Shown: positions 8,474-31,336 of the stretch, one piece after another
Layout of the letters: every line of letters starts with the position of its first letter
Numbering within the stretch: position 1 is the first letter of the stretch
Assembly: GCA_964457815.1 (NCBI GenBank)
Contig: CAYWFA010000001.1
Location: 1 to 35,989, forward strand
DNA from: Candidatus Woesearchaeota archaeon
Lineage (GTDB): Archaea; Nanobdellota; Nanobdellia; Pacearchaeales; GW2011-AR1
Direction of reading: 5' to 3'
Length of the DNA stretch: 35,989 bases
Program-made: the position numbers and the translations under genes
Notes under the pieces: generated by a model
The model's database searches: none
What the model saw: only the letters and a program-made list of their open reading frames with translations
What the model was told of the DNA's origin: nothing

Positions 8474-8474
8474 T

Positions 8475-10227: not shown

Positions 10228-13200
10228 TTAAAATATTTCTACGTAAAAAACTGCGCTTTTTGAATCTTGTGCATTATATTCTCTTAATCTTGCTGGAACC
10301 CTTAATTCATAATCATAAATTCCGTATGTTCCTTGTTCATGTTTGTTGATCGGAGAAACAAAAACTAAATCTTCTTTGTCTGCTAAATCGAATTCTCCCT
10401 CTGTTCCATTTGTATCGTCTGAAAAATCCCAAAGTATTCCTGTTACAAAATTGGAATTGTTTGTTGAATTAATTATCGGAACATTTTGTATTAAGCTTTT
10501 AAACGAATAAATATCTTGAGAATATTTTGGAACTCCAGAATTTGTATAAACGTTGTAAACAGAATCTTCAAAAGAACTGGTATTTAATGCTAAATCAATT
10601 TCTGAAAAATCTGAATTGCTGTTTGAATTAATTTTGTTTTTTCCTATAGCTTGTAAACTTGTCCAAGAAACATAAGAATCATAATCTGCAACGTAGATAT
10701 TTCCTTGATTGAAATTTTCTGTACTCCAGTTAATTAATTTGGTTGAATCATTGTTTGCTAGAACTAGATTACTTGAAGTTAAAACATCTCCATAAAAGAA
10801 ATGCCATGAACCCACATTAATCGTTTTTGAAGCCTTGTTGTTGGATTCATTTAATTCTATATAGCTTCCATTTGTTGTTAAAGGAGGATCAACTACAACA
10901 AAAACTTCTGAAGAACCTATTGAAGCAATTAATTCTTGAGAAACATTTCTCTCGCTGAATTTAGAAAGATTAATGAAAATGTCTTCTCCAATCTTTTCTC
11001 CTCCTGAATCTGGATCTCCTTTGTAAAAATTAACTGTAACATTTGAAATATCTGCTCCTGCAAGATTACGTATTGTTGCAGTTATTTCTATTAACTGATT
11101 TTCTTTAGGAGAACTTTCATTTAAAAATATTTCAGAAGAATTAACTGAAAAATCCGGATAAGTTAAATTAAATGTTCTTAACTCGCTTATGTTTGTATTT
11201 TTCATTTGATCCCAACAAGTTACATTCCACCAATGCTCTCCCTGTCCTAAAATAGAGGTAAGAACGTATTCTCTTTTTGATATATTGCTTGAAACCCAAA
11301 CGTTGGGTCTTCTAACTATTCCATCTACTGTTAAATTACATTGCAAAACTGTATCTAATGTATCTATTGCTGTCCAGTTGAAATAAACTCTGTCTTCGTT
11401 GAAATCAATTCCAGATTCATTTTCAGGAGAATTAAGAATTATTGAAGGAGGGGAAAAATCCATTGAAAAATATTTTGAGGTTGCATTTGCACTAGAAGGA
11501 ACAGGATTATTTGTATCATAACATTCAACTGTCCAATTATGTAACCCTTCTGGAATTCCTGAGATTGTGAAATTTGGATTTATTATTAATTCTGCAGAAG
11601 ATTTAGATTCATTCGAAACTTCATCTATATACAAGGTACAATTGTTTATTATCTGTGCATCTTCTGCAAGATAATGAAATGTTACTGCACTTCCAAAACC
11701 ATAAAAATCGTCATCTGGTGTGTAAAGAGTTATTTGTGGGGGGGCATATACTGTGAAATTTCTTGTTTCACTTGTATTGGAATTTTCGGCAGAGTCTGCA
11801 CATTCAATTGTCCAATTGTAATCTCCATCATCTAACAAATAAGGATATATTTCTGGAGTTGAATTCTCTGCAATAACTTGATCATAAAAAATATTATTGA
11901 TGAAAACATTACAAGAGATATTTTCATTTAAATTGTCTTCCACTGTGAAATTAAATAAAACTTCATTCCAATCTAATGTTTCGTTTGGTTCGGGTGAATT
12001 AAGGACAATTTTTGGAGCTTCTATGTCGATGTACAAGGTTCTATTTTCATCACTACCTATTACCCCTAAAGAATCCGCACAATAAACATTCCAAGTATGA
12101 TTTCCTTGAGAAAGAATTTCCGTGAAATAATTTGAATTATCATTAATTATTGGTGTTGAATTAACTTTTACAAATTCGTTGTCTATATACAAAGAACAAT
12201 TAACTATATCCTCTTCATATTTGTAAGCATAATATTCAAATTCAACTTCTGTGTAATTAAGCCAAGAATCTGGTTCCGGAGAAATCAAAATAACATCTGG
12301 GGGAGCAAAGGTAGTGAATTTTCTTGTTTCACTAATATTTAAATTTCCTGAATAGTCTGAACAAGAAACATTCCAATAATGCTCTCCAGAAATAAATGAT
12401 CTTGAAATCAAATTTGTAGAGCCATTCTCTGCAATTATAGAAGTAATATTTCCATCAACCGTGAAATTACAAGTTAAATTTTGTGCTAAGTTATCAGTTG
12501 CGGTGAAATTAAATGTTATCTGAGAAGAATAAATTATATCCTCGTCTCCAGGATAAAATAAGTTTACTTGGGGAGTAGAATTGTCTTTATAAAAAAACCT
12601 TGTTTCCGAATTATTTTCTAATCCATAGGTATCAAAACAATTGATTGTCCAATTGTAAAAACCATCGGATAAATCGTTTATAGAAAAGTTGGTTTGTTGG
12701 TTGTTTAAAGGAGAATAAGTTATATTTTCAAAGGAGCCATTTATATAAATTGAACAATTTGATAAATTGGTATTGTCTGAAGGGAGATATTCCAATAAGA
12801 CTTGGTCTTTAAACCAGTATACGTCTTCTGTAATCAAAGAAATTTCAGGAAGTTCTCTTATTGTTATTTCCCTGTTTTCACTTATGCCATAACGTCCTGC
12901 AGAATCAATACAACTTACATTCCAAACTTTTAAACCATCTGTTAAATCTGTAATTAATATGCTTGTATTTGCATTATTACTTGCAAGCAAATTATTTTCT
13001 GATTTTTCTCCGATACTTAAATTGCAATTTAATTCTGAATCAAGATTATCAGTTACATTGAAATAAAAATTCAAAGAAGAAAATTGAGAAGTTGTTGAAG
13101 TTTCTGGATGTAAAAGATAAACAACAGGATTTTGTGTATCTACATAGAAACGTCTTGTATTCGCAATAACGCTATATTCCCCTGTGTCGGTTATATTGAC

Positions 13201-16200
13201 TGTCCAATTATAAAATCCATCTGGGAGAGTGAGTGTAAAATTATTGTATGCTTTATTTATAATTTGAGATTGATTGGACTGGTTGTATGTACCATTTAAA
13301 TATAAGTCTGCAATTGTTAAGTTGTTGTTGTCTGAAGCGTTATAAATTAAACTTATTGTTGATTCATTGAACCACCAAAAATCTGGAGTTATCAAAAATA
13401 TTTCTGGAGGAACATCATTTATATTGAAATGAAAAGTTTCGCTTGTATATGATCTTAAAGAAGAATCAAAACAAGTTACGTTCCAATAATGAGTCCCAAC
13501 TGTTAAATATCCTGAATTACGACTTACATTTGTTGCGTTTTCAACAATAATTCCAGGATAAATAATTTCACCATCCAAAACAATATCACATGTAAGATTT
13601 AATGCCATATTGTCAGTTGCATTAAATTCTAAATCAAGATTGTTTACAAGATTGTTTGCTCCGTCTTCAGGATAAATGAGATTTACAAAAGGATTTTCTA
13701 AATCAACATAAAATATTCTTGTTTCATTTGAAGCGGCTTCTAAACTAGTTGTGTCTGTTACATTCACACTCCAATTATAAATTCCTTGCCCAAGAGAAAC
13801 TGTAAAATTGTTTATAACATTATTTATTATTGACGATTGATTTGTTTGATTTAAATTTCCATTCAATATCAGTGTTGAATTTGCAAGATTATCGTTTATA
13901 TCTGAAACATTATAATAAAGAATTACTTGAGAAGAATTAAACCAACTTAGATTTATTGGAGAAGTTAAATTTACGTTTGGAGGTGTTGCTCCTGCAGAAG
14001 TAACTGTTATAGGAGTTGTAGTTGTACCGTTATAACTGTCATATGTTCCTACAGCAATACATCTAATGTTGTTGTCTGAAGAAAAAGTGTTACCTTCTAT
14101 TGTAAATGTTGTGTTTTGAGAGATATTTGTTACATTTCCTAAATAATGGGGATTTGTTTCTCCCGAATCTAAAACAATATTGCCTGAAGAGCCAATATTT
14201 TGCCATCCAGAAGTGGAAGTATTTCTTTGAATATAAACATTAACATTTCTACATGTTCCAGAAGAGCAATTGACTTGACAAACTGCATCGAATGTATCTT
14301 CTTGAGCAACATAGGGGTCTGTTAAAGGAGAAACCAAATCAGCATGTAAAAATCCTTCAGTGGTTAAGTTAACAATAACATAAGAATTTGTTCCGGAATC
14401 CCAAGAATGGGTCAAAGTTTTTTGGCTGGTATGTGTGTTGTATGCGTTGACAACTAATTTCAATCTATCACTCGGTCCAAGATAAATATCTTGATTTATA
14501 CATGTTGAATTTGTACCTGATGCAGCATTTTCAAATATTCCGCTATTTGCATCATTCCCTAATTGACAAATTAAAGTGTCTCCACTTGAGCCAGAAACAT
14601 AAAGTTTCCAAGTTATTGCTATTTTCCCTGTAGGAGTTGAAGAAGAAAAGGTTCCTGAAAAACTAATGGGGCTTCCGGAAGGAATAACCGCTCCATTATA
14701 ACCCATATACTGGGAAGTCGCACTAACAACATTTACTAATTGTCCTGCGCCAATATCAAATACTACAGAGTTTGAGGTTGCATCTTGGCTGCTTTTCAGT
14801 TTTATTTCTGCTAAAGTGTTTCTTGAAGGATTAAAATTAGAACTTTCATATAATGTTCCTGTAAATAATTCTGGAGTTATTGAAACATTTATTGTTTTAT
14901 TCTCACTGAAACCCGTTCTTCCCCCTTCATCTGTACAAGAAACATACCAAGAATAAACTCCATTATCTAAAAATTCGTTGAATGTTAAATTTATATCTTT
15001 TGTTATAGATGTTTCTGTTTTTTTTAATTGATTATTGATATATAAAGAACAATTTTCAACTGAAGAAGCATCAGAAACATTATATATAAAATACAAGTTA
15101 CTATCATCTGTAATTGTTGAAGAATTTGAAGGATAAACAAGATTAACTGAGGGAGATTCCAAGTCAAAAGAAAAAGTATAATTTGAAGTTCCAAAGAAAC
15201 ACCCATTAGAATTGTCGCAACATTGCACATTCCAGATATAATTTCCGGAAGAAGTATAAGTTTTATTTATGAAATTAAAAGTATTGTTAACTATTGAAGA
15301 TTGATTTGTTGAATTCATATGCCATAACCCCGTAGAATTATCCCACAAACTACAATTCAAAAAAGTTGCAGAAGAAATAGGGGTAAAATTAAAAACAACA
15401 TCTTGGGAATAAAGTATATCTGTGTCTAAAGGAGATCTTAAAAGAACTTCAAATGCTCCTGCTTCATAAATGCTATAACTAATTCTTAAATAACCTGCAG
15501 CCCCTGGACCTCCATTTCTTGAACCTCCAGAAGAAGTTTTAATTGCCCCAGAACCTCCACCTCCATAATTATTACCAGAATTTCCTGCCCCTGTAGTTGT
15601 TCTTCCTGCTCCTCCATCTCCCCCTAATTCAGACGTTCCTGTTCCTGCAGTTCCTCCAGTTGCATTTCCTCCAATCCCTGTTGAACCTGCACCTCCACCA
15701 CCTGCACCGGAATAGCCTCCTGATTGGGTCCCCCCTTTTCCTCCCATATAAATTATGTCCCCTATAGAATTTGCAACACTTCCTCCTTCTCCTCCTGTTC
15801 CTGCACTTAAACCTCCACTTCCCCCTGCAGCATATAATTCGGAACCATCATCAAAATATGTAGGATTTCCTGTTGCCCCATTCCCTGTTCCACCTGCAAC
15901 TCCTGAAGCTACAGCAACTGTATAATTTTCATAGGGGCTAACTGAAAAAGTTTTTTTAACATAAGCTCCTCCTCCACCTCCTCCTGCTCTTCCACTGCCT
16001 CCTCCTGGACGTCCTCCACCAGCACCCCCTCCACCCCAGGCTTCAACAGTAATTTCATAAACTCCTGCTGGAACCATCCAAGTTGTGCTTGAAGAAAAAT
16101 TTACAAGATAATATGTATAAGGATCAACAATATAATCAAATTCAACACTTCCCCCTACAACTTTTAAATCAAAGGTATCCTGAGGGTTTTGTAAATTTGT

Positions 16201-17601
16201 TAAATATATTTTATTGTATTCATTAGAGGTTATAGAAGTAAATTCTGCTATTTTTTCAGTTCCATTCTTTTCATAAACTTCAATAGTTGGATTTCCTGAA
16301 ATTATTCTTGGGTAGAGGGTTATATCTCTTGTATTATCTAAAGGAACTTCAAATGTGACTCTTACATACTCTTGATTTGCAATGGTTTCGGACCAAACAT
16401 CATCTAAATCTTTAACTTCCGGGTAAATATCTGAAATAAGAGTTCTGTTTGAAGATAAATGATCTGCCTTTGTTATGAGAATTATTTCAAAAGTCTGATT
16501 GGATAAATGGGGAACAATCCACTCAACATAATCAAATAACCCATTACCATCTTTATCATATGCATTAAAATCAAGATATACTCCTTCTTCCTTCCAATAA
16601 ACTTGAATTAAATCTATGCTTGAAATCTCTCTTGGAAGACTTGTATAAGATAAAACCTCTTCATAGTGGAGATAGTCTGGAGAAGAAATAATAACTTCTT
16701 TTTTATTTGTTGAAATTAATTTTTCTTGAACTATTGGAGGAGAAGTAGAATATTCTAGGAGAATAATTTCTTGAACATCATCATTTATCAAAATATAATC
16801 TTTTTCTTGAATATTTACTTGAGTGTAATCATTGAAAATTTCTCCATTTTCTTTTTTTAAAACGAAATTTAAAAAATTTGAAACTTCTAAAAAATTGCCT
16901 TCTTCCAATAAACTTACTTTTTTAATCCAATTTACAGGTTTTCCTATTTCGGCATTTCCTTGAATTAATTTATTTTCAACATATCTAACTGCATAAAAAG
17001 TATATGACGTTTTTCCATTTCCCCTTATTAAATCAACAGAATATTCTCCTTCCTCTAAAATCTCAAATAAAAAGATATCGTTAGAACCTAGTCTAGAGAT
17101 TCTTTTACCGGATGGTGAAATTATTCTTAATTCGTAATTTCCTAATCCCTGAAGATTAAATTCCAATGAACTCTCTGAAAAATAAGTGTTGGAATTTTGA
17201 AAATTAAAAGAATAATAATCTGAGAATTTGTTTAAAGAAATATTCGTTGAATAACTTTCAGAATAAACTGATTCTTCTCCTCCAGAGATAAAGTTTTTTT
17301 CGTTCACTTGAAATTCCAGTCTTTCAAATGTTTCTAAAGATTCTATGTCAAAAATATAACTTCCAGATTCTTGAAATAAAAAAGAAAATTCATTTTCACA
17401 GTTGAACTGAAGTTCGTTTGAAGGGGTTTTAACTTTGATGAAACAAGATTCAGAATCTTGAAAATTTAAAAAAAGTTTATCTCCAACAAAATAAGAATTT
17501 TCTTCAGATGCGGAACTAAAAAATAAAGAAAACACCAAAATTAAAACAAGTAAAACAAATAAAATTCCTGCACTTAATCTAATTATCCCCCCTTTGTTCA
17601 T
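10228..17601 (-). CDS. Giant secreted surface/adhesin-like protein (about 2457 aa): N-terminal beta domains, glycine-rich domain, tandem Ig-like modules, CARDB-like domain, C-terminal SW-G-YFG/FYVEIF domain
   Basis: Uninterrupted ORF. The track start at 17622 is a TTG. The ATG at 17601 is preceded by AAGGGAGA and overlaps the upstream wHTH stop (ATGA). Signal/TM is IIRLSAGILFVLLVLILVFSLFFSSA. Domain evidence is given under the sub-features. Confidence 0.9.
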   Translation of the reverse strand: MNKGGIIRLSAGILFVLLVLILVFSLFFSSASEENSYFVGDKLFLNFQDSESCFIKVKTPSNELQFNCENEFSFLFQESGSYIFDIESLETFERLEFQVNEKNFISGGEESVYSESYSTNISLNKFSDYYSFNFQNSNTYFSESSLEFNLQGLGNYELRIISPSGKRISRLGSNDIFLFEILEEGEYSVDLIRGNGKTSYTFYAVRYVENKLIQGNAEIGKPVNWIKKVSLLEEGNFLEVSNFLNFVLKKENGEIFNDYTQVNIQEKDYILINDDVQEIILLEYSTSPPIVQEKLISTNKKEVIISSPDYLHYEEVLSYTSLPREISSIDLIQVYWKEEGVYLDFNAYDKDGNGLFDYVEWIVPHLSNQTFEIILITKADHLSSNRTLISDIYPEVKDLDDVWSETIANQEYVRVTFEVPLDNTRDITLYPRIISGNPTIEVYEKNGTEKIAEFTSITSNEYNKIYLTNLQNPQDTFDLKVVGGSVEFDYIVDPYTYYLVNFSSSTTWMVPAGVYEITVEAWGGGGAGGGRPGGGSGRAGGGGGGAYVKKTFSVSPYENYTVAVASGVAGGTGNGATGNPTYFDDGSELYAAGGSGGLSAGTGGEGGSVANSIGDIIYMGGKGGTQSGGYSGAGGGGAGSTGIGGNATGGTAGTGTSELGGDGGAGRTTTGAGNSGNNYGGGGSGAIKTSSGGSRNGGPGAAGYLRISYSIYEAGAFEVLLRSPLDTDILYSQDVVFNFTPISSATFLNCSLWDNSTGLWHMNSTNQSSIVNNTFNFINKTYTSSGNYIWNVQCCDNSNGCFFGTSNYTFSFDLESPSVNLVYPSNSSTITDDSNLYFIYNVSDASSVENCSLYINNQLKKTETSITKDINLTFNEFLDNGVYSWYVSCTDEGGRTGFSENKTINVSITPELFTGTLYESSNFNPSRNTLAEIKLKSSQDATSNSVVFDIGAGQLVNVVSATSQYMGYNGAVIPSGSPISFSGTFSSSTPTGKIAITWKLYVSGSSGDTLICQLGNDANSGIFENAASGTNSTCINQDIYLGPSDRLKLVVNAYNTHTSQKTLTHSWDSGTNSYVIVNLTTEGFLHADLVSPLTDPYVAQEDTFDAVCQVNCSSGTCRNVNVYIQRNTSTSGWQNIGSSGNIVLDSGETNPHYLGNVTNISQNTTFTIEGNTFSSDNNIRCIAVGTYDSYNGTTTTPITVTSAGATPPNVNLTSPINLSWFNSSQVILYYNVSDINDNLANSTLILNGNLNQTNQSSIINNVINNFTVSLGQGIYNWSVNVTDTTSLEAASNETRIFYVDLENPFVNLIYPEDGANNLVNNLDLEFNATDNMALNLTCDIVLDGEIIYPGIIVENATNVSRNSGYLTVGTHYWNVTCFDSSLRSYTSETFHFNINDVPPEIFLITPDFWWFNESTISLIYNASDNNNLTIADLYLNGTYNQSNQSQIINKAYNNFTLTLPDGFYNWTVNITDTGEYSVIANTRRFYVDTQNPVVYLLHPETSTTSQFSSLNFYFNVTDNLDSELNCNLSIGEKSENNLLASNNANTSILITDLTDGLKVWNVSCIDSAGRYGISENREITIRELPEISLITEDVYWFKDQVLLEYLPSDNTNLSNCSIYINGSFENITYSPLNNQQTNFSINDLSDGFYNWTINCFDTYGLENNSETRFFYKDNSTPQVNLFYPGDEDIIYSSQITFNFTATDNLAQNLTCNFTVDGNITSIIAENGSTNLISRSFISGEHYWNVSCSDYSGNLNISETRKFTTFAPPDVILISPEPDSWLNYTEVEFEYYAYKYEEDIVNCSLYIDNEFVKVNSTPIINDNSNYFTEILSQGNHTWNVYCADSLGVIGSDENRTLYIDIEAPKIVLNSPEPNETLDWNEVLFNFTVEDNLNENISCNVFINNIFYDQVIAENSTPEIYPYLLDDGDYNWTIECADSAENSNTSETRNFTVYAPPQITLYTPDDDFYGFGSAVTFHYLAEDAQIINNCTLYIDEVSNESKSSAELIINPNFTISGIPEGLHNWTVECYDTNNPVPSSANATSKYFSMDFSPPSIILNSPENESGIDFNEDRVYFNWTAIDTLDTVLQCNLTVDGIVRRPNVWVSSNISKREYVLTSILGQGEHWWNVTCWDQMKNTNISELRTFNLTYPDFSVNSSEIFLNESSPKENQLIEITATIRNLAGADISNVTVNFYKGDPDSGGEKIGEDIFINLSKFSERNVSQELIASIGSSEVFVVVDPPLTTNGSYIELNESNNKASKTINVGSWHFFYGDVLTSSNLVLANNDSTKLINWSTENFNQGNIYVADYDSYVSWTSLQAIGKNKINSNSNSDFSEIDLALNTSSFEDSVYNVYTNSGVPKYSQDIYSFKSLIQNVPIINSTNNSNFVTGILWDFSDDTNGTEGEFDLADKEDLVFVSPINKHEQGTYGIYDYELRVPARLREYNAQDSKSAVFYVEIF
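10231..10809 (-). other. C-terminal 193-aa domain of the giant protein, homologous to the small secreted paralogs
   Basis: SWHFFYGDVLTSSNLVLANNDSTKLINWSTENFNQGNIYVADYDSYVSWTSL ... EDLVFVSPINKHEQGTYGIYDYELRVPARL...KSAVFYVEIF is collinear with SWQGYFGNVTGTIMLADNADNVMYNWSLASPEGEIYASTNGSLNWSAV ... SSVIFTSILDEESPLGFDGRAHDFEMLVLENG...TTYFFWVELE. Confidence 0.65.
10810..11160 (-). other. CARDB-like domain within the giant protein
   Basis: IEITATIRNLAGADISNVTVNFYKGDP...EVFVVVDP...IELNESNNKASKTI. The E-x-NE-x-NN ending and overall pattern are typical of CARDB. Confidence 0.6.
11161..13990 (-). repeat. Ten consecutive ~94-aa (about 283-bp) Ig-like modules arranged as five alternating A-B pairs
   Basis: Each module starts with a P-x-[VI]-x-L-x-x-P-like boundary. 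Each contains ...[FY]-x-[FY]-x-x-x-D...C-x-[LI]...G-x-[YH]-x-W-x-V-x-C-x-D...SE-x-R-x-F. A-type modules (L-x-x-P..W[FL]N...LNG..NQSNQS.IIN..NNFT...G.YNW) alternate with B-type modules (...ATDN...L.C...). Confidence 0.8.
15475..16085 (-). other. Glycine-rich domain (locally GC-rich) within the giant protein
   Basis: TWMVPAGVYEITVEAWGGGGAGGGRPGGGSGRAGGGGGGAY...GGSGG...GGGGAGSTGIGGNATGG...GGPGAAGYLRISY. The W-x-VPAGV...WGGGG...start and the Y-x-R-I-x-Y end match the glycine-rich domain recalled from phage tail-fibre-like and bacterial surface proteins. Confidence 0.6.
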
Positions 17602-17837
17602 TTTTCTCCCTTTATTTGCCAAAGATTTATTCTTCCTACACGAAAGCCATTAATCCTGTTATTTATTTGAAGTCTTAGACAACGAGTTTGAATGGAATGC
17701 CAAGGTTTTTTAATTTCATCTGCAATTTCCTGGGTAGATTTTGGATTAACGGAGCTAGAAAGAGACTTGACTATTTCTAATTCTAACACATCCTCTTTTT
17801 TGCGATTAACCGTACGGTTAATCTTACTTTTAATCAT
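17598..17837 (-). CDS. Small winged-helix DNA-binding protein; its stop overlaps the ATG of the giant gene
   Basis: 79 aa. SVNPKSTQEIADEIKKPWHSIQTRCLRLQINNRINGFRVGRINLWQI fits helix-turn-helix plus wing. Its TGA stop overlaps the giant-gene ATG (ATGA, 17598-17601). Confidence 0.7.
   Translation of the reverse strand: MIKSKINRTVNRKKEDVLELEIVKSLSSSVNPKSTQEIADEIKKPWHSIQTRCLRLQINNRINGFRVGRINLWQIKGEK
17805..17822. promoter_or_regulatory. Perfect 18-bp palindrome attaaccgt|acggttaat, candidate operator
   Basis: Read directly from the sequence. It lies 15-32 nt downstream of the wHTH ATG (17837), inside codons 6-11. Confidence 0.35.
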
Positions 17838-17860
17838 ACTATATAACGCAAGAAGAATTG

Positions 17861-17869
17861 ATTTAAATA
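17861..17869 (-). promoter_or_regulatory. Candidate TATA box for the wHTH/giant-protein transcription unit
   Basis: The minus strand reads tatttaaat centred about 28 nt upstream of the ATG at 17837, consistent with a leaderless or short-leader archaeal mRNA. Confidence 0.35.
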
Positions 17870-17937
17870 CCTTTTGTATATTATTTATATTTCAATTGAT
17901 TTATAAGCCTAGGAAATAGTTGAAAAAGTATCTTTTT

Positions 17938-19311: not shown

Positions 19312-19345
19312 AGAAAATGAAAATTAACTGAGTATAAAAGATTTT

Positions 19346-20446
19346 CTAAACTCCAGTTAAATGAATAAATTCTTCTTCTGTTGTCCTGGATTTTGCAAGG
19401 ATGAGTATGCCTAAAATAATTATTGCTCCTCCGAACATTGAAAAGAAAGAAGACAAAACATTTGAAAATCCCAAATCTATGAAATCTTTGTAGGATATAA
19501 CTATATTGAATCCCAATATCAACAAAGAAATTTCTTTCATGAAAGTACCTCCTCCAAAAAAGAACAAGAAAGCAACAAGAACGGGAACAAAAATCCCCCC
19601 CAAAATTATTATACCTAGAGAATCTGGAGAATTGCCACATAGTATTTCGGTGTGGGGGAGGCTCCCTTCGTAAACAATCCTTTCCAAATCACAATCTGTG
19701 AAAAGTTTGGAAACAAAAAAATGTCCCGATTCATGAATAGCAATGGTCCCTATAAAAACAAAATTAGTTAAGATAACTATAAAAATAAAATATCGAATAA
19801 AATCAAATAGATAGTATTTTTTTTTAAAACTATGTTTTTTTTCGCTGGAAGAAAAAGGAATCTTTTTTAAATCTATTACAAAAAATAAAATAAATACAAA
19901 GAAAAACAAATTAGAAATTAAACTCATCAAAATTGAAGATTGATTTTTAAAGATAAGAATAACCTCCAATAAAAGTGAAATGGAACAGTAAAAAATTGCA
20001 AACTTAGAAATTCTTGCAAATTGGGGGATTGAAATTAACAAGATAAATAATATCATTATAAGCATTAAAGAAGAAATTAAAAGGAAGTTTGGAAAATTCC
20101 ATCCCATTAAAATTGAGAATATGAAAATTAAATAAATAAAAAGAAGGTAGAATATTTTCTTATTTTTTCTTATATTGTAAATTAGTATAAGAAGGAAGAT
20201 AGATTCAACAGATATTAAAATTGAATGAATGAATAAAAAATCTGAAGGATTATACGTAGTTACATTAAATACCACTAAAGAAAAAACTAAAGAATAAATC
20301 AAAAAAATGAATCCCATTAAAAACAATAAAAGGAATGCATTCCCTAATTTAGGATATTTCTTGTTATTTATTATAAAATTGAAAATTAAAAAGATTGCAA
20401 TTGCTAATGAAATTAAAGCATTTAACAAAAATAAAAAATTTATCAT
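19346..20446 (-). CDS. Polytopic membrane protein with HExxH motif (putative intramembrane zinc metalloprotease)
   Basis: 366 aa and hydrophobic throughout, with about 8-9 predicted TM segments. IAIHESGHFFVSK (HESGH encoded at 19721-19735) lies at the edge of a TM segment, as in M50/S2P-like proteases. The second (NxxPxxxxDG) motif was not recognised. Confidence 0.7.
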   Translation of the reverse strand: MINFLFLLNALISLAIAIFLIFNFIINNKKYPKLGNAFLLLFLMGFIFLIYSLVFSLVVFNVTTYNPSDFLFIHSILISVESIFLLILIYNIRKNKKIFYLLFIYLIFIFSILMGWNFPNFLLISSLMLIMILFILLISIPQFARISKFAIFYCSISLLLEVILIFKNQSSILMSLISNLFFFVFILFFVIDLKKIPFSSSEKKHSFKKKYYLFDFIRYFIFIVILTNFVFIGTIAIHESGHFFVSKLFTDCDLERIVYEGSLPHTEILCGNSPDSLGIIILGGIFVPVLVAFLFFFGGGTFMKEISLLILGFNIVISYKDFIDLGFSNVLSSFFSMFGGAIIILGILILAKSRTTEEEFIHLTGV

Positions 20447-20571
20447 CTTCTTAATAAACAGTTCTTAACGATTAAAAATAACTGATGTTCCATACAAAAA
20501 AAGGTTTAAAAGTATATTTAAATGTTTTTTAAAAATGAATAATAAGGGCAAAAAATAAAAAAAATGCGCCC

Positions 20572-21273
20572 TTATTCAAGTTCTACCCAAAAGTAGTATG
20601 TTGTTGGATTTGTATCTATTCCATGGCCGTCTTCAAGAACCATCATTTCAAAGTCGTGAGGGTTGTTATCAAAACCATCTGCATCATTTAATAAAAGAGA
20701 TGCAAAGATTATATTTGGACCATCTGTAAGCAAAACTTCATCAAATGTTCCCGTTCCCACGCTGTTATACAATTTTGTGCTATTACATAAGCCTGTAGTA
20801 AATTGTTTGTTGTTTGTGAAAAACTCTGCGTGATTGTTTAAATTAAATGTTTCATTCAATCCATCTGCATCAGCAGTAGAAATTCCAAACATGTTTTCAA
20901 AAAAAGTCATATTTGTAGGCTCATCATAACATTGAATACCTTCCCAAGCTACAGAAGAGGAATTAGATGCGTAAATTTCACCCTCTGGTGAAGCCAGAGA
21001 CCAATTGTACATAACATTATCTGAATTATCTGCCAACATAATTGTACCTGTAACGTTACCGAAATAACCTTGCCAAGACTGGGTTATCGAATAACCAGAA
21101 ATTGCAAGTTCTGTTATATTTCCTGCAATAGCAGAATCATTTCCTGCAGAAGTAACGTTAGCCCGTGAGCTTGTCAAGTTGGTCACGACAGCTCCATTAG
21201 GTAATGCAGACACCAATGAAGACAATATCAAGATTGTACAAAAAACCAATACAAAATTAATTATTTTTCTCAT
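20572..21273 (-). CDS. Secreted protein, paralog B of the SW-G-YFG/YDFEMLV/FWVELE family
   Basis: 233 aa. Signal ...LSSLVSA/LPNG. Core GYSITQSWQGYFGNVTGTIMLADNSDNVMYNWSLASPEGEIYAS. C-terminus HDFEMMVLEDGHGIDTNPTTYYFWVELE. GGAGGT lies 7 nt upstream of the ATG. Confidence 0.85.
   Translation of the reverse strand: MRKIINFVLVFCTILILSSLVSALPNGAVVTNLTSSRANVTSAGNDSAIAGNITELAISGYSITQSWQGYFGNVTGTIMLADNSDNVMYNWSLASPEGEIYASNSSSVAWEGIQCYDEPTNMTFFENMFGISTADADGLNETFNLNNHAEFFTNNKQFTTGLCNSTKLYNSVGTGTFDEVLLTDGPNIIFASLLLNDADGFDNNPHDFEMMVLEDGHGIDTNPTTYYFWVELE
20969..21134 (-). repeat. Conserved DNA segment R-B
   Basis: 155/166 identical to 9749-9914. Positions 20975-21097 are 121/123 identical to 22541-22663. 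Confidence 0.85.
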
Positions 21274-21892
21274 TTTGTTTACCTCCTTTCATCTCTATAA
21301 TTTTTTTTAAAAAAACAGGATTTTGGTAAATTGGAAAAAGAGAAGAAAAAGAAATATTATTTATTTCATTTAAAGAATAAAATTCAAGCTTAACACTGTT
21401 CTCTTGCTTTTTAGAAATATTTTCTATTGTTTGTTGGATTTTTTTATCTTCCAAAAATATGATTAAAGAAGAATTTGATTTTTTTATATCCGCAAAAATT
21501 GCATATATGCTCTTAAAGTTGTCTTTAACCTTATAAATAAACTCCTCTAGAAAGAATTGTGAAGATTTATTCTCCAAGAGCCAAATTTTAAAGATTGATT
21601 TTTGATAATCTTCTAAATCTAGATTTTTTTTCTCTCCAAAACCATTGGTAAGTAAAATTGAATAACAAATATCTTTTGAAATTGAAAAGAGATTCCTTGG
21701 TTTTCCTTTTTCAAAAGCACCCGTCTTTTCCTTGGAAACAATTTGAGCTGCTTCAAGCAATTTTAACTGCTGACTGATAAATGAAACTGTTGTTTTTGTT
21801 TTTTCTGCAATCTCAATTGGGGAGGAAGGCTTCTCCGAGATAATTTTGAGAATTTCCCACCTCGGAGATGCCAGAAAAGAATCAAGTTCCAT
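21257..21892 (-). CDS. ArsR-like winged-helix transcriptional regulator with C-terminal extension
   Basis: 211 aa. SPRWEILKIISEKPSSPIEIAEKTKTTVSFISQQLKLLEAAQIVSKEKTG...PRNLFSI is a typical ArsR/SmtB-type HTH. Its 3' end overlaps the paralog B start by 17 nt. Confidence 0.75.
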   Translation of the reverse strand: MELDSFLASPRWEILKIISEKPSSPIEIAEKTKTTVSFISQQLKLLEAAQIVSKEKTGAFEKGKPRNLFSISKDICYSILLTNGFGEKKNLDLEDYQKSIFKIWLLENKSSQFFLEEFIYKVKDNFKSIYAIFADIKKSNSSLIIFLEDKKIQQTIENISKKQENSVKLEFYSLNEINNISFSSLFPIYQNPVFLKKIIEMKGGKQNEKNN

Positions 21893-22062
21893 TAGTTAAT
21901 AGATATCTCAAAAGCTATTTAAATGTTTTGTTTAATTAATTAACTTAATTTTTTTACTAATGAGGGTAAAAAATTATAAAGGCTTATTAACTAAATAAAG
22001 TAAATAGTTAAATAGTTTATAAAAAATAAAGGGAATTTTATTTAAAATCTAAAAAAAAGAAA

Positions 22063-22851
22063 TTATTCTAATTCAATCCAAAAGTAATAAGTTGTTGTTT
22101 CCGTATCTGTTAAATGCCCGTTTTCAAGAACAAGCATTTCAAAATCATGGGGATTGTTATCAAAACCAAAAACATTTTCATTTAACAAAGAGGTAAATAT
22201 GATACTACGTGTAGTTGGTTCATATAAAAGAACTTCTTCAAATTTATTGTCTTCGCCTTGTCCAGAATTGGTGAAAACTTGAGTGTTTCTACATTCTCCT
22301 TCTGAAAAATTAAGATTATTTGTATAAAATGTATTATGGCCTGAACCTAAAAGGGTGAAGGTTTCGTTTACTCCATCCACATCATCATCAGCAATTCCAA
22401 ACATTGCTTCCAAAATTGTTAAATTGGTTCCATGTTGATTTGTATCTCCGGGAGTTTCTGCTCCAATGTAAGTTCCATCTGCGTCAAAATTAAAACATTG
22501 AACATCTGCCCAAGAAATTGAGTCATTTGTAGAAGCATAGATTTCACCCTCTGGTGAAGCCAGAGACCAATTGTACATAACATTATCTGAATTATCTGCC
22601 AACATAATTGTACCTGTAACATTACCAAAATAACCTTGCCAAGACTGGGTTATCGAATAACCAAATATACTTAGCTCCGTAACATTTCCCGCCAAAGCTG
22701 GAATACCTGTTGCGTCATCTGAATCTGCCCTGCTAGAGGATAAATTAACAACATTTGCTCCAAAGGGTTCAATTGCTAAAACCAAGGAAATGTTCAATAA
22801 AAATATTAGCACAGCAACGAAAAGTATTACTTGTTTCATCCTCTTTACCAT
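22063..22851 (-). CDS. Secreted protein, paralog C of the SW-G-YFG/YDFEMLV/FWVELE family
   Basis: The track ORF starts at a TTG (22866). The first ATGs are at 22851 (MVKRMKQ...) and 22839. Signal ...ISLVLA/IEPFG. Core GYSITQSWQGYFGNVTGTIMLADNSDNVMYNWSLASPEGEIYAS. C-terminus HDFEMLVLENGHLTDTETTTYYFWIELE. Confidence 0.85.
   Translation of the reverse strand: MVKRMKQVILFVAVLIFLLNISLVLAIEPFGANVVNLSSSRADSDDATGIPALAGNVTELSIFGYSITQSWQGYFGNVTGTIMLADNSDNVMYNWSLASPEGEIYASTNDSISWADVQCFNFDADGTYIGAETPGDTNQHGTNLTILEAMFGIADDDVDGVNETFTLLGSGHNTFYTNNLNFSEGECRNTQVFTNSGQGEDNKFEEVLLYEPTTRSIIFTSLLNENVFGFDNNPHDFEMLVLENGHLTDTETTTYYFWIELE
22535..22663 (-). repeat. Conserved DNA segment R-C
   Basis: Positions 22541-22663 are 121/123 identical to 20975-21097. 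Similarity drops sharply outside this segment. Confidence 0.85.
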
Positions 22852-22895
22852 CGATAAAATAAACAAAAAGAGCTTTATAATTCTTTCTTTTTTAA

Positions 22896-23765
22896 TTAAT
22901 TTATTTCTCCTAATAGAGTTTTAAGTCTTTCAATGTCCCTTGATAAAGGGCTCTTTTTCTGTATTTCTTTTAAAGCTTCTGTGTATTTTTGAACTTTGTC
23001 TAAAACTTTATCCAACTCTTCTTTTTCCGCAAAATTCAAGATCTTTGTTTTTAAATTATCTACGTCTTTTGAGTTTTGTTCTATATTTGCCTTAGATTCT
23101 TGAAGCTGAGAATTAAAAGTATCTAAATCTTGTATTTTCTTTCTCATTTCGCTGTAAATTGTTTGGACTTTATCTGTTTGGATATTGATTGTTCCTTCTA
23201 TCTTTTTTATTCCAATGAGTTCTTTTTTTATTTCTTCGCTAAGTTTAATTATTTCTTCTATTCCTCTGAAAAAGCTCATTTTACGCCGTGTTTCTTTTAG
23301 TTCTTCCATAACTTGGTCCAATATAGCTTCATTTCCTTCAAGATTTGCTTTGAGTGCTTCTATTTTAACGTTCTGCCTTTCTAAATCCATCATGAATTTA
23401 TCCGGTTTTATTGATTCTACCAAATCAATGGCTTTTATAGATTTCAGCTCCATTGTTTGAATTGTTCTATCTCTATCAAGAATCATTGATCTCAATTCTC
23501 CAATCTGTTCGCTTACCCTTGTAAATCTTTCTGTGAATGATTTCCTTACTTCTTGAAAAGCTTCTTGGCTTGCTTTCAACTTGTCTATTTCTGTAGATAA
23601 TTTAAGAATATTTTGGGAATCTGAAGAAACAGAAGAAACAATTGGTTTTTCTTCCTGAGGAGGTTTTGAAACTTGCTCTTTATTTTCTTCTATGTTTTCA
23701 CTACTTGGATCCGTTTCTTCTTGATTTTCACTTTCTTTTTTCTTTGATTTCAAAAAATCAAACAT
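22896..23765 (-). CDS. Coiled-coil protein with acidic low-complexity N-terminus
   Basis: 289 aa, ATG start. MFDFLKSKKKESENQEETDPSSENIEENKEQ, then about 230 aa of heptad-like K/E/L/I-rich sequence. No TM segment. Confidence 0.7.
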   Translation of the reverse strand: MFDFLKSKKKESENQEETDPSSENIEENKEQVSKPPQEEKPIVSSVSSDSQNILKLSTEIDKLKASQEAFQEVRKSFTERFTRVSEQIGELRSMILDRDRTIQTMELKSIKAIDLVESIKPDKFMMDLERQNVKIEALKANLEGNEAILDQVMEELKETRRKMSFFRGIEEIIKLSEEIKKELIGIKKIEGTINIQTDKVQTIYSEMRKKIQDLDTFNSQLQESKANIEQNSKDVDNLKTKILNFAEKEELDKVLDKVQKYTEALKEIQKKSPLSRDIERLKTLLGEIN

Positions 23766-24081
23766 TGGATATCTCCTCTTCTAGCTTATTTAACAAAGAA
23801 TCTATTTTTTTAAAATCTTTCTCATTGAAACCTGTACGTAATAAAAGTATCTTGGAATGAATTATATGGGATTTTGAAGAAAGTAACCTTTTAATCTTTT
23901 TTTCTTTTATTTTTTTTATTTTTAAATCTAAATTTAATTGTTTTAATTTTAACTCTGAAATAAGAGAATTTTGAAGAACGTCTAATCTTTCATTTTTATC
24001 TTTTATCTTGTTTATTTTTTTATGCTTTTTTTTATCAATAAACGAAGAAGATATCTTCTTTAACCTCTTTAATTTTTCCAT
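23758..24081 (-). CDS. Small Lys-rich coiled-coil protein
   Basis: 107 aa, ATG start. Its 3' end overlaps the start of the next gene by 8 nt. Lies immediately downstream of the 1120-aa ATPase gene. Confidence 0.55.
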   Translation of the reverse strand: MEKLKRLKKISSSFIDKKKHKKINKIKDKNERLDVLQNSLISELKLKQLNLDLKIKKIKEKKIKRLLSSKSHIIHSKILLLRTGFNEKDFKKIDSLLNKLEEEISNV

Positions 24082-24148
24082 AAATAAAATAAATGAATCT
24101 GGTTTTTATCTCTTTTGTTTTTAAATTATTAAATACAACTAACAAAAT

Positions 24149-27100
24149 TTACTCTTTCTTCTTTTTTTTCTGTTCTTCTTTTTCATAAATCTCTCTAGCT
24201 TTTTTTGCTTCTTCAACAGATTTTTCTATTTCTGAAGCATCCAATAATTTCTTTTCAACCTTTTTTGGTTTTTTTCCTATCTTTTCCCATTGCTTTTGTA
24301 ATCTCGGTCCAAGTCCTTCAACATAAATATCCACAACAGAGAAATTTCCAGTCATAAGTTTATCTTTTATTAGTTTAAGTTCCATCTTGAAATCAAAAAT
24401 GTCTATCTTTTCTTTTTCAAGCTGATTTACTTGATTCTCAAAATCATCTATTATATCATTGTATTTATTGTATTTTTCCAGCTCTTCATCTGAAAGCCTT
24501 CTTGTATTGTGAAGGATTGGCCTGAAATTTACAAAATAAGGTTTACCTTTATTGTATTCTGCATTTTGAAACATTGCAACTCCAACTTCTGCTCTAACTA
24601 AAGATTTCAAAAATTCTTCTCCGTATTTTGTTTTTATTCTTTCTAAATCAGATTCTTCTATTGTTCTTGTTTGAATTTCAGTATTAATGTTTGCTTTAAC
24701 TTCTCCAACAAAATCGCTTAATACCTGTGAAATTAAAACTACTCCCATTCCCCATTTTCTAAACTCTCTACAAGCTCTTTCAATTTGCAAGAAACCTTCA
24801 CCACTTCCACCAAATTTTGAAAGAAGTCTATGAACTTCATCGAAAACAAGTAGGACCTTAAGTTCTTGGGCTTCTTTTGGATCTGATTTAAATATTTGTC
24901 TAATTACACTTGCAATAAAAGTGTCAATATCCTTGGGATCAAGTTTATTTAGTGCGAATATTTGTATCTGTCCTGGATGAATATATTTTTCTATTTCAAT
25001 TATTTCTCTCGCATGTGAAATTTGCCTTATATTTCCGGGGAAAGCTCTGGAATCAGAAGGTTTTAATCCAAACTTAGGATAAAAAGACATCATTTTTTTA
25101 TCTTCGCATTTTCTCAATAACCCAGACCATTGTGCTGTTGGATCAAAAACAATAACTGCTACGTTTTTTAATAAGGCTTCTTCAACCAATACTTGTGCAG
25201 AAATACTTTTACCCATACCTGTAGCTCCTGCAACGATTGCGTGGGTTTTTAATTTCTCTGGTTCAAGATAAACAGGATATTTTGATTCAGCAATTAATCC
25301 TAATTTAAAAAAACTTTTGTTTGCCTTTGGAAGAGTAGATAAATCCAAAGAAATCCCATATCTTTTTCTTTTTTCTTTGTATCTTTTATAAAGAAAAACA
25401 TTAAGTAAAATGAAACTTATGAAAGAAAGTATTGCAAAGAAAATCCAAAGAGGTATCCCTAGAAAAGAATAAAGATAAAGAGGTTTACGCACTGAAAAAG
25501 GTGCTGTGGCACTGGAAGAAAATCCTAAATATTTTGCATTCACAACAAACAAATAATCTCCTTCAGAAAAATTTGAAGGAATATTAATGTAATCAACTAT
25601 TGACAAAGCTTTTTTTATTTCAACTTCTTGGATTTCTCTGAAAGAAACTGTTGAATCTTTCTCATTAATGATTAATTTTTCCAATAAAACTTTGTATTCC
25701 TGATCAATCAACAAATTTTGTAAATTAAGTTTATAATTCAAATTTTCTCCTGGGTTAACAATGTTTTTAAACAAATCTATTTCCATCAAAAGGGTTTCTA
25801 TTGGCAATCTGTTTTCAATTATTTTTATTTTTATGGGGATTTCTTTTTCTACATCTCCTGTTAATTTTAAAATACCTTCATAAGTGCCTACTGGCTTTGT
25901 TCCATAAAAAGTTATTTTTATTTCTTCCCCATTTCCAGGTTCCAATATAAGAGCGTCTCTATCTAATTTTACAAAATCTGTTAATTCTGGAGAAAGAGAT
26001 AAAAGAAGATTAATGTTTGAAAGTTTAAAATTGTAAATACCTATTGTATCTTCAACAAAAGTGTTTTGTCTTATTTCTTTGAAAATATCTTTTGTGCTTA
26101 TCCAAAAATCTTCTCCCGATTTTTGTAATTCTTCGATAATTTGTTTGACATCTTCTCCGGGCTCTTCATCATATGGGCCGGTTTCATAAGGATTGTTTGT
26201 TGATCCCAAGTTCATTAAAGTTAAAGTTATATTGTGGCTTAAAAAAGTGGTATTTTGATAAAAAGTGAGGAGATCATAATAATTATTATATCCCAAAAGA
26301 GTTGCTATTATAGGATATTGTTGAGGAATAATTTCTGGTGTTAATTCGTAATATCCTAATTCATTGCTTGTGGTGGAATCTCCTGCAATGTAAACACTAA
26401 CTGAATCTAATGGATTTCCCAAGGAATCTTTAACATATCCTGAAACAAGAGGAAAAATCACCTCTTCTGTGCTAGGAGTAACTGTTTGCAAAGTAATATT
26501 GTGGTTTATTGTGTTGTTTGTGAAATTAACGGTTATATTTGAAAAATAGCTATCATATCCTTCACCATATGCAATTAGATTGTGTGTTCCGGGCATTAAA
26601 TTTAAAGAAATGTTGTAAAATCCATTTATGTCTGTGGTTGCATTTGTACCCGCAACAACCACTGTGATGTTTTCTATAGGAGAATTGCTTGAATTTACAA
26701 CATATCCGTAAATATTTGTGTTTATAACCTCTCCCATCCCTCCTGCGGGACATTCGTCATAGGGATCTGTGAAAAAGTAATACCTTATATTTGAAGATGG
26801 AAGCATAGGCAAAATCATTTGAAAATTAACTGTTGTATTTGGACTGTAACCTTTTTGTAACTCTTCAATATGTGTTACATAAACTAAATTTCCTCCTCCA
26901 TCAACCAAAATTCCCAAATCAAATATCCCGTAATTTCCATCCCATCTGTAAGTGTGTGTAGAGGGGATATTTGTGATATTTCTTGTTCCCACCATCACCC
27001 ACATTGTATCATAAAAAGTGTTTGAAGCACAATCTACCCCTGAAGAACACCCTGTCCAAGAATCAATCTGGACAGCAGTGGCAGGAATTAATGAATCAAA

Positions 27101-27511
27101 ATCAATTGTTGAAGAAGTGGAAGCATAAACTTCCTTTCCCCCTATTGCATCCTGTTGGATACAATTAAAAAACAAACCGGTTGTTGAAATTTCTCCAGAA
27201 TTAACATCTTCAAATAAAAGCTCTGTGTATCCTGGAACTCTTAAAGCCAAGCCATACAATCCATGCCAATAAGAGGTTTGAAATTTAATTGTTACGTTTA
27301 ATTCAGAAATATATCCTGCTTGTGAAGGAACATAAGTTAAGAAACCTGTGGAAAGAATGTTTGTTATAAACAAAACACAAATTACAAATGTCGAAAATAA
27401 AGCAAATGCGAGCAATAAAAACTCAAAAGTATCTTCTTTCTTTTTTTGACGTAATTCTCTTCTTGCAATGGCAATTGCTTTTTTAGAAACTCTTTCACCT
27501 TTCTTATGCAT
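24149..27511 (-). CDS. Two-TM membrane protein: extracellular paralog-like domain, two CarboxypepD_reg-like and further beta-sandwich domains, and a cytoplasmic HerA/FtsK-superfamily (DUF87-like) ATPase
   Basis: 1120 aa. Basic N-terminus, TM1 (aa 29-53), ectodomain of about 625 aa, TM2 (aa about 678-708, LYLYSFLGIPLWIFFAILSFISFILLNVFLY). Walker A AGATGMGKS (25205-25231), Walker B LLVFDEVHRL, and REFRKWGMGVVLISQVLSDFVGEVKANINTEIQTRT. K/E-rich coiled-coil tail. TDINGFYN and SNELGYYEL mark the CarboxypepD_reg-like repeats. Confidence 0.9.
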   Translation of the reverse strand: MHKKGERVSKKAIAIARRELRQKKKEDTFEFLLLAFALFSTFVICVLFITNILSTGFLTYVPSQAGYISELNVTIKFQTSYWHGLYGLALRVPGYTELLFEDVNSGEISTTGLFFNCIQQDAIGGKEVYASTSSTIDFDSLIPATAVQIDSWTGCSSGVDCASNTFYDTMWVMVGTRNITNIPSTHTYRWDGNYGIFDLGILVDGGGNLVYVTHIEELQKGYSPNTTVNFQMILPMLPSSNIRYYFFTDPYDECPAGGMGEVINTNIYGYVVNSSNSPIENITVVVAGTNATTDINGFYNISLNLMPGTHNLIAYGEGYDSYFSNITVNFTNNTINHNITLQTVTPSTEEVIFPLVSGYVKDSLGNPLDSVSVYIAGDSTTSNELGYYELTPEIIPQQYPIIATLLGYNNYYDLLTFYQNTTFLSHNITLTLMNLGSTNNPYETGPYDEEPGEDVKQIIEELQKSGEDFWISTKDIFKEIRQNTFVEDTIGIYNFKLSNINLLLSLSPELTDFVKLDRDALILEPGNGEEIKITFYGTKPVGTYEGILKLTGDVEKEIPIKIKIIENRLPIETLLMEIDLFKNIVNPGENLNYKLNLQNLLIDQEYKVLLEKLIINEKDSTVSFREIQEVEIKKALSIVDYINIPSNFSEGDYLFVVNAKYLGFSSSATAPFSVRKPLYLYSFLGIPLWIFFAILSFISFILLNVFLYKRYKEKRKRYGISLDLSTLPKANKSFFKLGLIAESKYPVYLEPEKLKTHAIVAGATGMGKSISAQVLVEEALLKNVAVIVFDPTAQWSGLLRKCEDKKMMSFYPKFGLKPSDSRAFPGNIRQISHAREIIEIEKYIHPGQIQIFALNKLDPKDIDTFIASVIRQIFKSDPKEAQELKVLLVFDEVHRLLSKFGGSGEGFLQIERACREFRKWGMGVVLISQVLSDFVGEVKANINTEIQTRTIEESDLERIKTKYGEEFLKSLVRAEVGVAMFQNAEYNKGKPYFVNFRPILHNTRRLSDEELEKYNKYNDIIDDFENQVNQLEKEKIDIFDFKMELKLIKDKLMTGNFSVVDIYVEGLGPRLQKQWEKIGKKPKKVEKKLLDASEIEKSVEEAKKAREIYEKEEQKKKKKE
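26765..27322 (-). other. Ectodomain segment (aa about 64-249) of the ATPase protein, homologous to the small secreted paralogs
   Basis: AGYISELNVTIKFQTSYWHGLYG ... GGKEVYASTSSTIDFDSL ... NLVYVTHIEELQKGYSPNTTVNFQMILPMLPSSNIRYYFFTD is collinear with AGNVTELAISGYSITQSWQGYFG ... EGEIYASTNGSLNWSAV ... SVIFTSILDEESPLGFDGRAHDFEMLVLENG...TTYFFWVE. Confidence 0.6.
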
Positions 27512-28652: not shown

Positions 28653-28653
28653 A

Positions 28654-31302: not shown

Positions 31303-31336
31303 ATTAATAACTTTAAATAATAATATTTAAAACTTT

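Follow-up and report, generated by a model that had tools for sequence, protein, structure and literature searches.

An extracellular domain shared by free subunits, a giant adhesin-like protein and a HerA-type membrane ATPase in a conserved archaeal locus

What does a microorganism build from a locus in which the same extracellular domain appears to be carried by small secreted proteins, by a giant adhesin-like protein and by a membrane ATPase? This question is raised by a stretch of 35,989 nucleotides from a Candidatus Woesearchaeota archaeon (GenBank assembly GCA_964457815.1, contig CAYWFA010000001.1), referred to as the window in what follows. Its guanine-plus-cytosine (GC) content is about 30%, and the nearest relatives of its proteins are found in metagenome-assembled genomes labelled Woesearchaeota, Pacearchaeota, Nanoarchaeota or Nanobdellota; these are DPANN archaea, tiny and symbiotic. 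On its minus strand lie four small secreted paralogs (free paralogs A to D), a giant secreted protein and a membrane ATPase of 1120 amino acids (aa), and an initial annotation, aligned by eye, had proposed that a single domain is reused in all of them, following the logic of anchor, shaft and tip in a pilus. The analysis presented here confirms from the sequences that the three contexts share one homologous domain, and indicates that the product of the locus is probably a type of cell-surface apparatus for which there is no earlier description.

One domain in three protein contexts

The motifs quoted in the initial annotation are all present where it had placed them, in the last 193 aa of the giant protein (10231-10809) and in aa 64-249 of the ATPase (26765-27322). 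Pairwise comparison gives an uneven picture of their relationship: using BLASTP, paralog A matches the giant C-terminus with an E value of 1e-4 across 59 aa, and its match to the ATPase ectodomain is not significant. The check that had been suggested, a profile hidden Markov model (HMM) made from paralogs A to D, gave marginal scores with these four sequences (the ATPase reached 16.9 bits and the giant 6.6 bits), and profile-profile comparison with hhalign using only four close ectodomain sequences was undecided (probability 14-37%). Taking into account that pairwise BLAST and the four-sequence HMM were too weak, alignments of whole families were built. For the free paralogs, 1009 homologues were collected at E <= 1e-3 and 47 sequences were aligned; for the giant C-terminus, 67 homologues gave an alignment of 45 giant-type C-termini. 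A word-indexed search with the ectodomain returned just three close fragments, and a four-sequence ectodomain profile was then scanned exhaustively over 1.84e9 representative proteins, leading to an alignment of 30 ectodomains, every one of them from a protein with a downstream Walker A motif.

With these alignments, the three families are joined by hhalign in every combination: free paralogs with ectodomains (probability 98.9%, E 1.4e-17, 179 columns), giant C-termini with ectodomains (97.3%, E 2.6e-11, 160 columns) and free paralogs with giant C-termini (97.5%, E 4.9e-12, 175 columns). Thus, both the proposed reuse of one domain and its collinearity with the paralogs hold, the latter over 160-179 columns. 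The marginal or non-significant BLAST results might have pointed to a resemblance due to chance or to composition among secreted proteins of low GC that are rich in Asn, Ser and Thr. The hhalign controls refute this reading: reversed and column-shuffled alignments reach a probability of at most 0.6% and E values no better than 0.095, against 1e-11 to 1e-17 for the real families, and practically no weight is left to it. In the same comparison, six other conserved families of the locus, including three secreted and glycosylated ones of like composition, matched over at most 13 columns, all in the signal peptide.

The exhaustive scan connects the families independently across the whole library. 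It returned 291 hits at E <= 1e-3, some of them free members, and among the 150 of these that were listed nearly all match at about residues 35-250, near the N-terminus. A downstream Walker A motif (GxxGxGK[ST]) is present in 29 of the 47 full-coverage hits of at least 600 aa, and DUF87/HerA domains were confirmed in the four hits checked. The scan also pulled out four free proteins of 223-246 aa (P0278, P0288, P0317 and P0337), with library-wide E values of 1.4e-15 to 3.2e-9, which score 66-103 bits against the free-paralog HMM and show the same build: a signal peptide, GGYIxELNL, WQGYWG, EVYAS and a C-terminal YYxWLELS. Within the window, an HMM made only from ATPase ectodomains detects the paralogs at 34.6-44.8 bits and the giant-C HMM at 22.6-26.7 bits, and the HMMs find exactly six copies of the domain: four free, one at the giant C-terminus and one in the ATPase.

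The free copies are all encoded on the minus strand. Paralog A (9301..10059; 252 aa) carries a Sec-type signal peptide and no anchor, and scores 37.8 bits with the ectodomain HMM. Paralog B (8475..9218; 247 aa) is the most divergent of the four, with 29% identity to A, and yet the nearest to both other contexts (44.8 bits with the ectodomain HMM and 26.7 bits with the giant-C HMM). Paralog C (20572..21273; 233 aa) reaches 300 bits with the paralog HMM, 42.5 bits with the ectodomain HMM and 24.9 bits with the giant-C HMM, and paralog D (22063..22866; 267 aa if read from a TTG) 415 bits with the paralog HMM and 34.6 bits with the ectodomain HMM; the true start of the latter is probably the ATG at 22851. 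Lengths in the family are 240-295 aa for all but one of the 120 homologues listed, and the mean column identity in the 47-sequence alignment is 56%.

The shared domain comprises about 190 aa and is predicted to consist mostly of beta strands. An AlphaFold2 model of the ATPase ectodomain copy was obtained with high confidence (predicted local distance difference test, pLDDT, 95; predicted template modelling score 0.88) and contains ten beta strands and one helix; that of paralog A has a pLDDT of 71, with residues 23-54, just past the signal peptide, below 50. When the two models are read along the hhalign alignment, without superposing them, their secondary-structure elements follow in the same order. 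Foldseek found no significant neighbour for either model in the PDB (best E 0.37 for the ectodomain, 0.40 for the paralog) and nothing below E 0.1 for the ectodomain model in BFVD, and profile searches of PDB sequences returned no relative. No curated family matches paralogs A to D in Pfam, A in NCBIfam, or A and B in PHROGs, and none of the 120 listed free-paralog homologues has a precomputed Pfam domain. As judged from sequence, and whatever its function, the domain is a new lineage-specific extracellular family; its free members at E <= 0.001 exceed 1000, and the ectodomain profile has 291 hits and the giant-type C-terminus 67 members.

The carriers and their possible assembly

The ATPase (24149..27511, minus strand) is composed, according to Pfam, hydropathy and motifs, of a short basic N-terminus, a first transmembrane (TM) segment, an extracellular loop of 640 aa, a second TM segment, a HerA-type nucleotide-binding domain and a C-terminal coiled coil. 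By hydropathy, TM1 spans residues 27-61 and TM2 residues 677-709, approximately. The shared domain occupies aa 59-255 (26747..27337, minus strand; 235 bits with the ectodomain HMM) and begins about 10 residues past TM1, which places it on the outside, near the membrane; it is the only one of the six copies in the window that sits between two TM segments. It is followed in the loop by two CarboxypepD_reg domains (Pfam, 58.6 bits) and, as predicted from sequence, by two further immunoglobulin (Ig)-like domains. The density of N-glycosylation sequons is 2.2 per 100 aa in the loop versus 0.5 in the cytoplasmic part. Walker A (GATGMGKS, residue 762) and Walker B (VLLVFDE, residue 886) are both intact. 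The covalent fusion of a membrane copy to a HerA-like ATPase, as put forward in the initial annotation, is recovered in 30 or more clusters (50% identity), with the domain following TM1 directly in every case. The annotation had also noted that it knew of no description of this arrangement, and full-text searching of the literature found nothing published on the domain, on the locus or on any HerA-type ATPase that has an ectodomain of this kind.

The giant protein (10228..17622, minus strand; 2464 aa if read from a TTG) probably starts at the ATG at 17601. A signal or anchor segment stands at its N-terminus, Pfam recognises Ig-like repeats and a glycine-rich domain (Big_13, Gly_rich_2, Big_7 and Big_3_3), and the protein has 110 N-glycosylation sequons and no C-terminal anchor. 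The shared domain stands at its extreme C-terminus (10231..10857, minus strand; 272 bits with the giant-C HMM), its core running from SWHFFYG (aa 2272) to the final residue, and in many giant-type homologues it is preceded by a CARDB domain (PF07705). Orthologues of 2400-5200 aa occupy the matching position in relatives, the full-length ones reaching 3885 and 5208 aa. A local rise in GC content (0.36 in the interval 14001-16000, versus about 0.29) coincides with the Gly_rich_2 domain of this protein (aa 511-716).

The free copies and the giant have 3.2-4.5 sequons per 100 aa and no second hydrophobic segment. By inspection, the signal peptides of the free subunits show a hydrophobic stretch followed by an A-x-A-type site, resembling Sec/signal peptidase I substrates, and a class III signal peptide, typical of type IV pilins, was not seen on them. 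The free paralogs end in ...WVELE and the giant in ...YVEIF, exactly at the last strand of the domain, and with no C-terminal hydrophobic segment they have no sorting signal of the PGF-CTERM, LPXTG or similar type. The free copies and the giant need a partner in order to stay on the cell, since they have a signal peptide and no anchor and stop where the last strand of the domain does. The free copies, and neither the ATPase nor the giant copy, have a conserved N-terminal extension of about 30 aa, with A-x-[E/D/L]-P-x-G right after the predicted signal peptidase I site, followed by about 25 residues modelled as disordered. Such an extension would suit a donor strand, without being evidence for one.

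On the grounds of homology, membrane topology and synteny, it is proposed, with about even confidence, that these secreted parts co-assemble and are anchored by the copy in the ATPase. The domain would then act as a module for self- and hetero-association. HerA/FtsK ATPases work as hexamers, and six membrane copies would thus be arranged in a ring on the outer membrane surface, presented, by analogy with the family, by a hexameric ATPase. The free copies might assemble on this ring, the giant might join through its C-terminal copy, presenting its adhesive repeats outwards, and the ATPase might either drive the assembly itself or move DNA or protein, as a substrate, through the structure or along it. 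A pilus-like logic of anchor, shaft and tip fits the anchorless Sec-type free copies and giant, the position of the giant's copy at the extreme C-terminus, as in two-domain tip adhesins, and the tight synteny; these same facts also fit a two-dimensional lattice or a shared binding module.

In the first of these alternatives, the free paralogs would form a surface layer (S-layer)-like coat into which the ATPase and the giant are inserted through the same domain, with co-assembly but no filament. The combination of anchorless and anchored proteins recalls SlaA/SlaB-type S-layers, a hexameric ATPase would fit a p6 lattice, and the free paralogs are conserved to the high degree mentioned above. 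However, archaeal S-layer proteins do not usually come as four paralogous subunits of about 25 kDa, an S-layer anchored on an ATPase has no known precedent, and the PDB searches found no similarity of the domain to solved S-layer proteins. Such a coat is considered improbable.

Several observations weigh against co-assembly anchored by the ATPase copy. They derive partly from a conservation scan, in which GTDB species genomes were searched with the free-paralog alignment and the loci annotated by HMM, returning 80 loci in about 50 assemblies; apart from one labelled Diapherotrites, these bear the names Woesearchaeota, Pacearchaeota, Nanoarchaeota or plain "archaeon". Three distinct orthologous ATPase genes in this set (one found in both L054 and L057, the others in L068 and L075) lack the shared domain and have free paralogs nearby. 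The encoded proteins, of 746-844 aa, keep TM1, the two Ig-like domains, TM2 and the nucleotide-binding domain, and also lack CarboxypepD_reg. The copy in the ATPase is therefore not an obligatory anchor, and is dispensable in some lineages. Moreover, the domain is found at the N-terminus of two membrane proteins that are not ATPases, P0249 (1048 aa) and P0250 (762 aa), a fourth architecture in which a signal peptide is followed by the shared domain, CARDB, more domains, a C-terminal TM segment and a cytoplasmic tail of about 100 aa. In sequence, the copies of these two proteins stand between the free and the ATPase ones. This occurrence makes the domain a mobile module, which could equally be a binding domain. 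In addition, Pfam and NCBIfam scans of about 20 window proteins revealed no secretion or pilus partner genes (VirB4, VirB6/CedA, a VirB2-like pilin or PilB/PilC), and nothing structurally close to the confident ectodomain model was found among solved pilins, S-layer proteins or lectins, leaving the fold silent on function.

Some of these points lend themselves to a different explanation, namely that a lectin-like or host-surface-binding domain is mounted on varied carriers, from free secreted proteins and the adhesin tail to the ATPase loop and type-I membrane proteins, with copies that do not touch each other, the one in the ATPase being a receptor that senses or captures a ligand. Modularity, with at least four architectures, and the ATPase orthologues that do without the domain would both be expected of such a module, conserved aromatic residues abound in the domain, with W69, Y72, Y91, W93 and W112 invariant or nearly so, and DPANN archaea depend on host contact. 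Diffusible lectins, on the other hand, are hard to square with four anchorless free paralogs per genome, of 44-89% identity and always beside a giant or an ATPase gene; free copies that nothing holds would diffuse off the cell, and the model matches no lectin or carbohydrate-binding-module fold in the PDB. A binding role of this kind is a tentative option that we judge unlikely.

Returning to co-assembly, its most ambitious form would be a new class of envelope-spanning machine, in which a hexameric translocase of the HerA/FtsK type carries, as a covalent part of its own chain, the basal subunit of a fibre or tube; this Sec-dependent structure would consist of homologous free subunits with, at its tip, a giant adhesin bearing the same domain, and would serve host attachment and DNA or protein transfer across the contact in Woesearchaeota and Pacearchaeota. 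This complete picture is put forward as a speculative possibility, and rather doubtful as a whole.

The conserved locus and its other genes

The locus, of about 30 kb, is syntenic across about 50 assemblies. In the order of minus-strand transcription, it begins with a truncated giant Ig-rich protein, a 557-aa C-terminally anchored protein and the 1120-aa ATPase; it continues with two coiled-coil proteins, paralog D, a winged-helix regulator, paralog C and a membrane protein of about ten TM segments with an HESGH motif; and it ends with a secreted 457-aa protein, the giant, paralogs A and B, a secreted 354-aa protein and an XerC/D-type integrase. Two modules recur. The first, formed by the giant with its C-terminal domain, two free paralogs, the 354-aa protein and the integrase, is present in about 34 loci, and the second (the ATPase with the domain, coiled coils, a free paralog, the helix-turn-helix protein, another free paralog, the membrane protein and the 457-aa protein) in 15 loci holding the complete gene.

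The upstream arm (29629..35857, minus strand; Pfam Big_13 and hydropathy) comprises the second giant and the 557-aa protein, with gene order kept in 9-22 loci. The second giant is read at 31337-35857 (minus strand); its stop-to-stop frame runs to base 35989, so that the gene is cut by the end of the window (31337-35989, minus strand), and its translation shows a segment of about 300 aa that is repeated within the protein in nearly identical form. The 557-aa protein has, by hydropathy, a signal peptide and a C-terminal TM anchor. The HMMs do not find the shared domain in either of these proteins. In three loci (L036, L077 and L079) both genes are replaced by proteins of about 620 aa with a giant-type C-terminal domain, located upstream of the ATPase gene. 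Between this arm and the ATPase gene, four small divergent genes (27620..29632, plus strand) encode charged, coiled-coil-like products; their position is kept in 8-15 loci, and the two products scanned have no family match.

Directly downstream of the ATPase gene, two proteins of 107 and 289 aa (22896..24081, minus strand) show Lys/Glu-rich, heptad-like repeats. The larger one has no TM segment and no sequons, both are read as cytoplasmic, and their genes are kept in 23 and 36 loci. The winged-helix regulator of ArsR/MarR type between paralogs D and C (21257..21892, minus strand; Pfam HTH_5, 27.6 bits) occupies the identical position in 33 loci. After paralog C comes the polytopic membrane protein (19346..20446, minus strand; 366 aa and about ten TM segments, from sequence and hydropathy), which has no family match in Pfam, NCBIfam or PHROGs and is kept after the second free paralog in 24 loci. 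Its HESGH motif suggests that it may be an intramembrane metalloprotease, and the free paralogs, with their conserved N-terminus, might have that end processed by it.

Two further secreted families accompany the domain without containing it. The 457-aa protein upstream of the giant (17938..19311, minus strand), with a signal peptide and sequons, is kept in 14 loci and is negative for the shared domain in hhalign. The 354-aa protein after paralog B (7511..8575, minus strand) has 21 sequons and is kept in 51 loci; its hhalign match is limited to the signal peptide, which leaves it, too, without the domain. As annotated, its open reading frame overlaps the 3' end of the paralog B gene, and its probable true start is Met35, at about 8473.

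Directly after the locus, an XerC/D-type tyrosine recombinase (277 aa) is accompanied by a 139-aa fragment with a serine-recombinase "Recombinase" domain (6016-7265, minus strand), and this pair is kept between the locus and the ribosomal protein genes in the relatives L001 and L003. The latter genes, L18e-L13-S9 (4498-5656), are archaeal. A second HerA-like ATPase (1658-3673, minus strand; 671 aa) is cytoplasmic, with intact Walker motifs and a winged-helix-like C-terminal tail; it scores 39.8 bits with Pfam DUF87 and 60 bits with NCBIfam CedD, whose cutoff is 600. It is found again about 6 kb past paralog B in ten or more related loci, and a 152-aa coiled-coil protein precedes it.

The integrase and recombinase fragment that flank the locus could suggest an integrated virus or mobile element, with a packaging ATPase of the HerA/FtsK type and beta-sandwich capsid or spike proteins. 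Two further observations point the same way: the P-loop region of the membrane ATPase matches packaging-ATPase families of PHROGs, and the weak, non-significant Foldseek matches of the paralog model include viral jelly-roll capsids. However, the gene order beside L18e-L13-S9 (annotated with Pfam in L001 and L003) recurs in relatives, which indicates vertical inheritance; the proteins bear Sec-type signal peptides and glycosylation sequons, and the ATPase has two TM segments and a 640-aa outside loop. PHROGs gave no match for the five non-ATPase proteins scanned, nor BFVD for the domain. A viral origin is thus rejected on the basis of synteny, signal peptides and the lack of viral matches, and is regarded as highly improbable.

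Comparison with known systems

The ATPase described here resembles the HerA helicases and the DUF87 and DUF853 (YjgR) ATPases: it passes the Pfam gathering thresholds of DUF87 (45.2 bits, cutoff 23.2) and HerA_C (38.5 bits, cutoff 22), its nearest solved structures in the PDB are HerA proteins (E 6e-8 to 2e-6), and its Walker motifs are intact. Canonical HerA is soluble, acts together with the nuclease NurA in resecting DNA ends and begins with a HAS barrel in its N-terminal part, whereas the protein of this locus has two TM segments and a large ectodomain in place of the N-terminal part, and no NurA, Mre11 or Rad50 was matched among the window proteins scanned.

Its topology, in contrast, is that of the type IV coupling proteins and their archaeal counterparts (VirD4/TrwB/TraD, CedD and TedD), in which TM1, an outside loop and TM2 are followed, in the cytoplasm, by a HerA-FtsK superfamily P-loop domain; the coupling-protein pattern of two TM segments followed by a cytoplasmic nucleotide-binding domain is found here. 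CedD, the VirD4-like membrane ATPase on which DNA import in Sulfolobus depends (PMC11823120), is its best NCBIfam match, although below threshold. The scores fall far short of the coupling-protein cut-offs (CedD, 36.8 bits versus 600; TraD, 26 versus 366; TrwB_AAD_bind, 16.9 versus 20.5), the outside loop has 640 aa and five predicted domains where theirs is short, and genes of the VirB4/CedB, VirB6/CedA and VirB2/CedA1 types, which accompany coupling proteins, were not detected in the same set of scanned window proteins. The protein is thus a member of the HerA-FtsK superfamily with coupling-protein topology, outside the coupling-protein family. With respect to type IV pili and related filaments, both ATPases of the window are of the HerA type and not T2SSE, and no platform protein of the PilC/ArlJ type was matched in Pfam.

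The giant recalls the tip adhesins of chaperone-usher pili, FimH and PapG, which have an adhesive N-terminal part and a C-terminal domain homologous to the shaft subunits, just as the last domain of the giant is homologous to the free paralogs. Differences are the size of its adhesive part (more than 2000 aa), the absence of usher, chaperone and outer membrane, and a fold unrelated by Foldseek.

Woesearchaeota and Pacearchaeota are abundant, uncultured and thought to live attached to hosts, and we know of no molecular apparatus for host contact in them. The locus constitutes a concrete and conserved candidate for such an apparatus, in which a membrane motor from the HerA-FtsK superfamily, whose members pump DNA or protein, shares its outside domain with secreted proteins and a giant adhesin. 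The window system is not described in Makarova 2014 (PMC4158269) or in a paper on groundwater DPANN (PMC9938205), and the nanotubes observed by cryo-electron tomography of DPANN cells originate from the host and are not relevant to it (PMC11329633).

Finally, the free paralogs may be compared with the subunits of archaeal filaments that are not of type IV. Sulfolobus threads, bundling pili (AbpA/TasA-like) and Pyrodictium cannulae are formed by donor-strand complementation, from small subunits that are secreted through Sec, N-glycosylated and processed by signal peptidase I (PMC9715654, PMC9245690, PMC12518558). For the threads, a same-fold paralog has been proposed as the cap, and anchoring and assembly machinery were left open (PMC9715654). 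Like these subunits, the free paralogs are small, with a Sec-type signal and glycosylation sequons; their conserved N-terminal extension, modelled as disordered, might serve as a donor strand. The differences are that no fold or sequence similarity to the solved subunits was found in the PDB, and that in this locus a membrane ATPase has a copy of the subunit fold within its own chain. Co-assembly of the copies, if real, would provide the first example of a surface structure with a basal subunit fused to its ATPase, and it would bear on how Sec-dependent archaeal filaments that are not of type IV are anchored and assembled.

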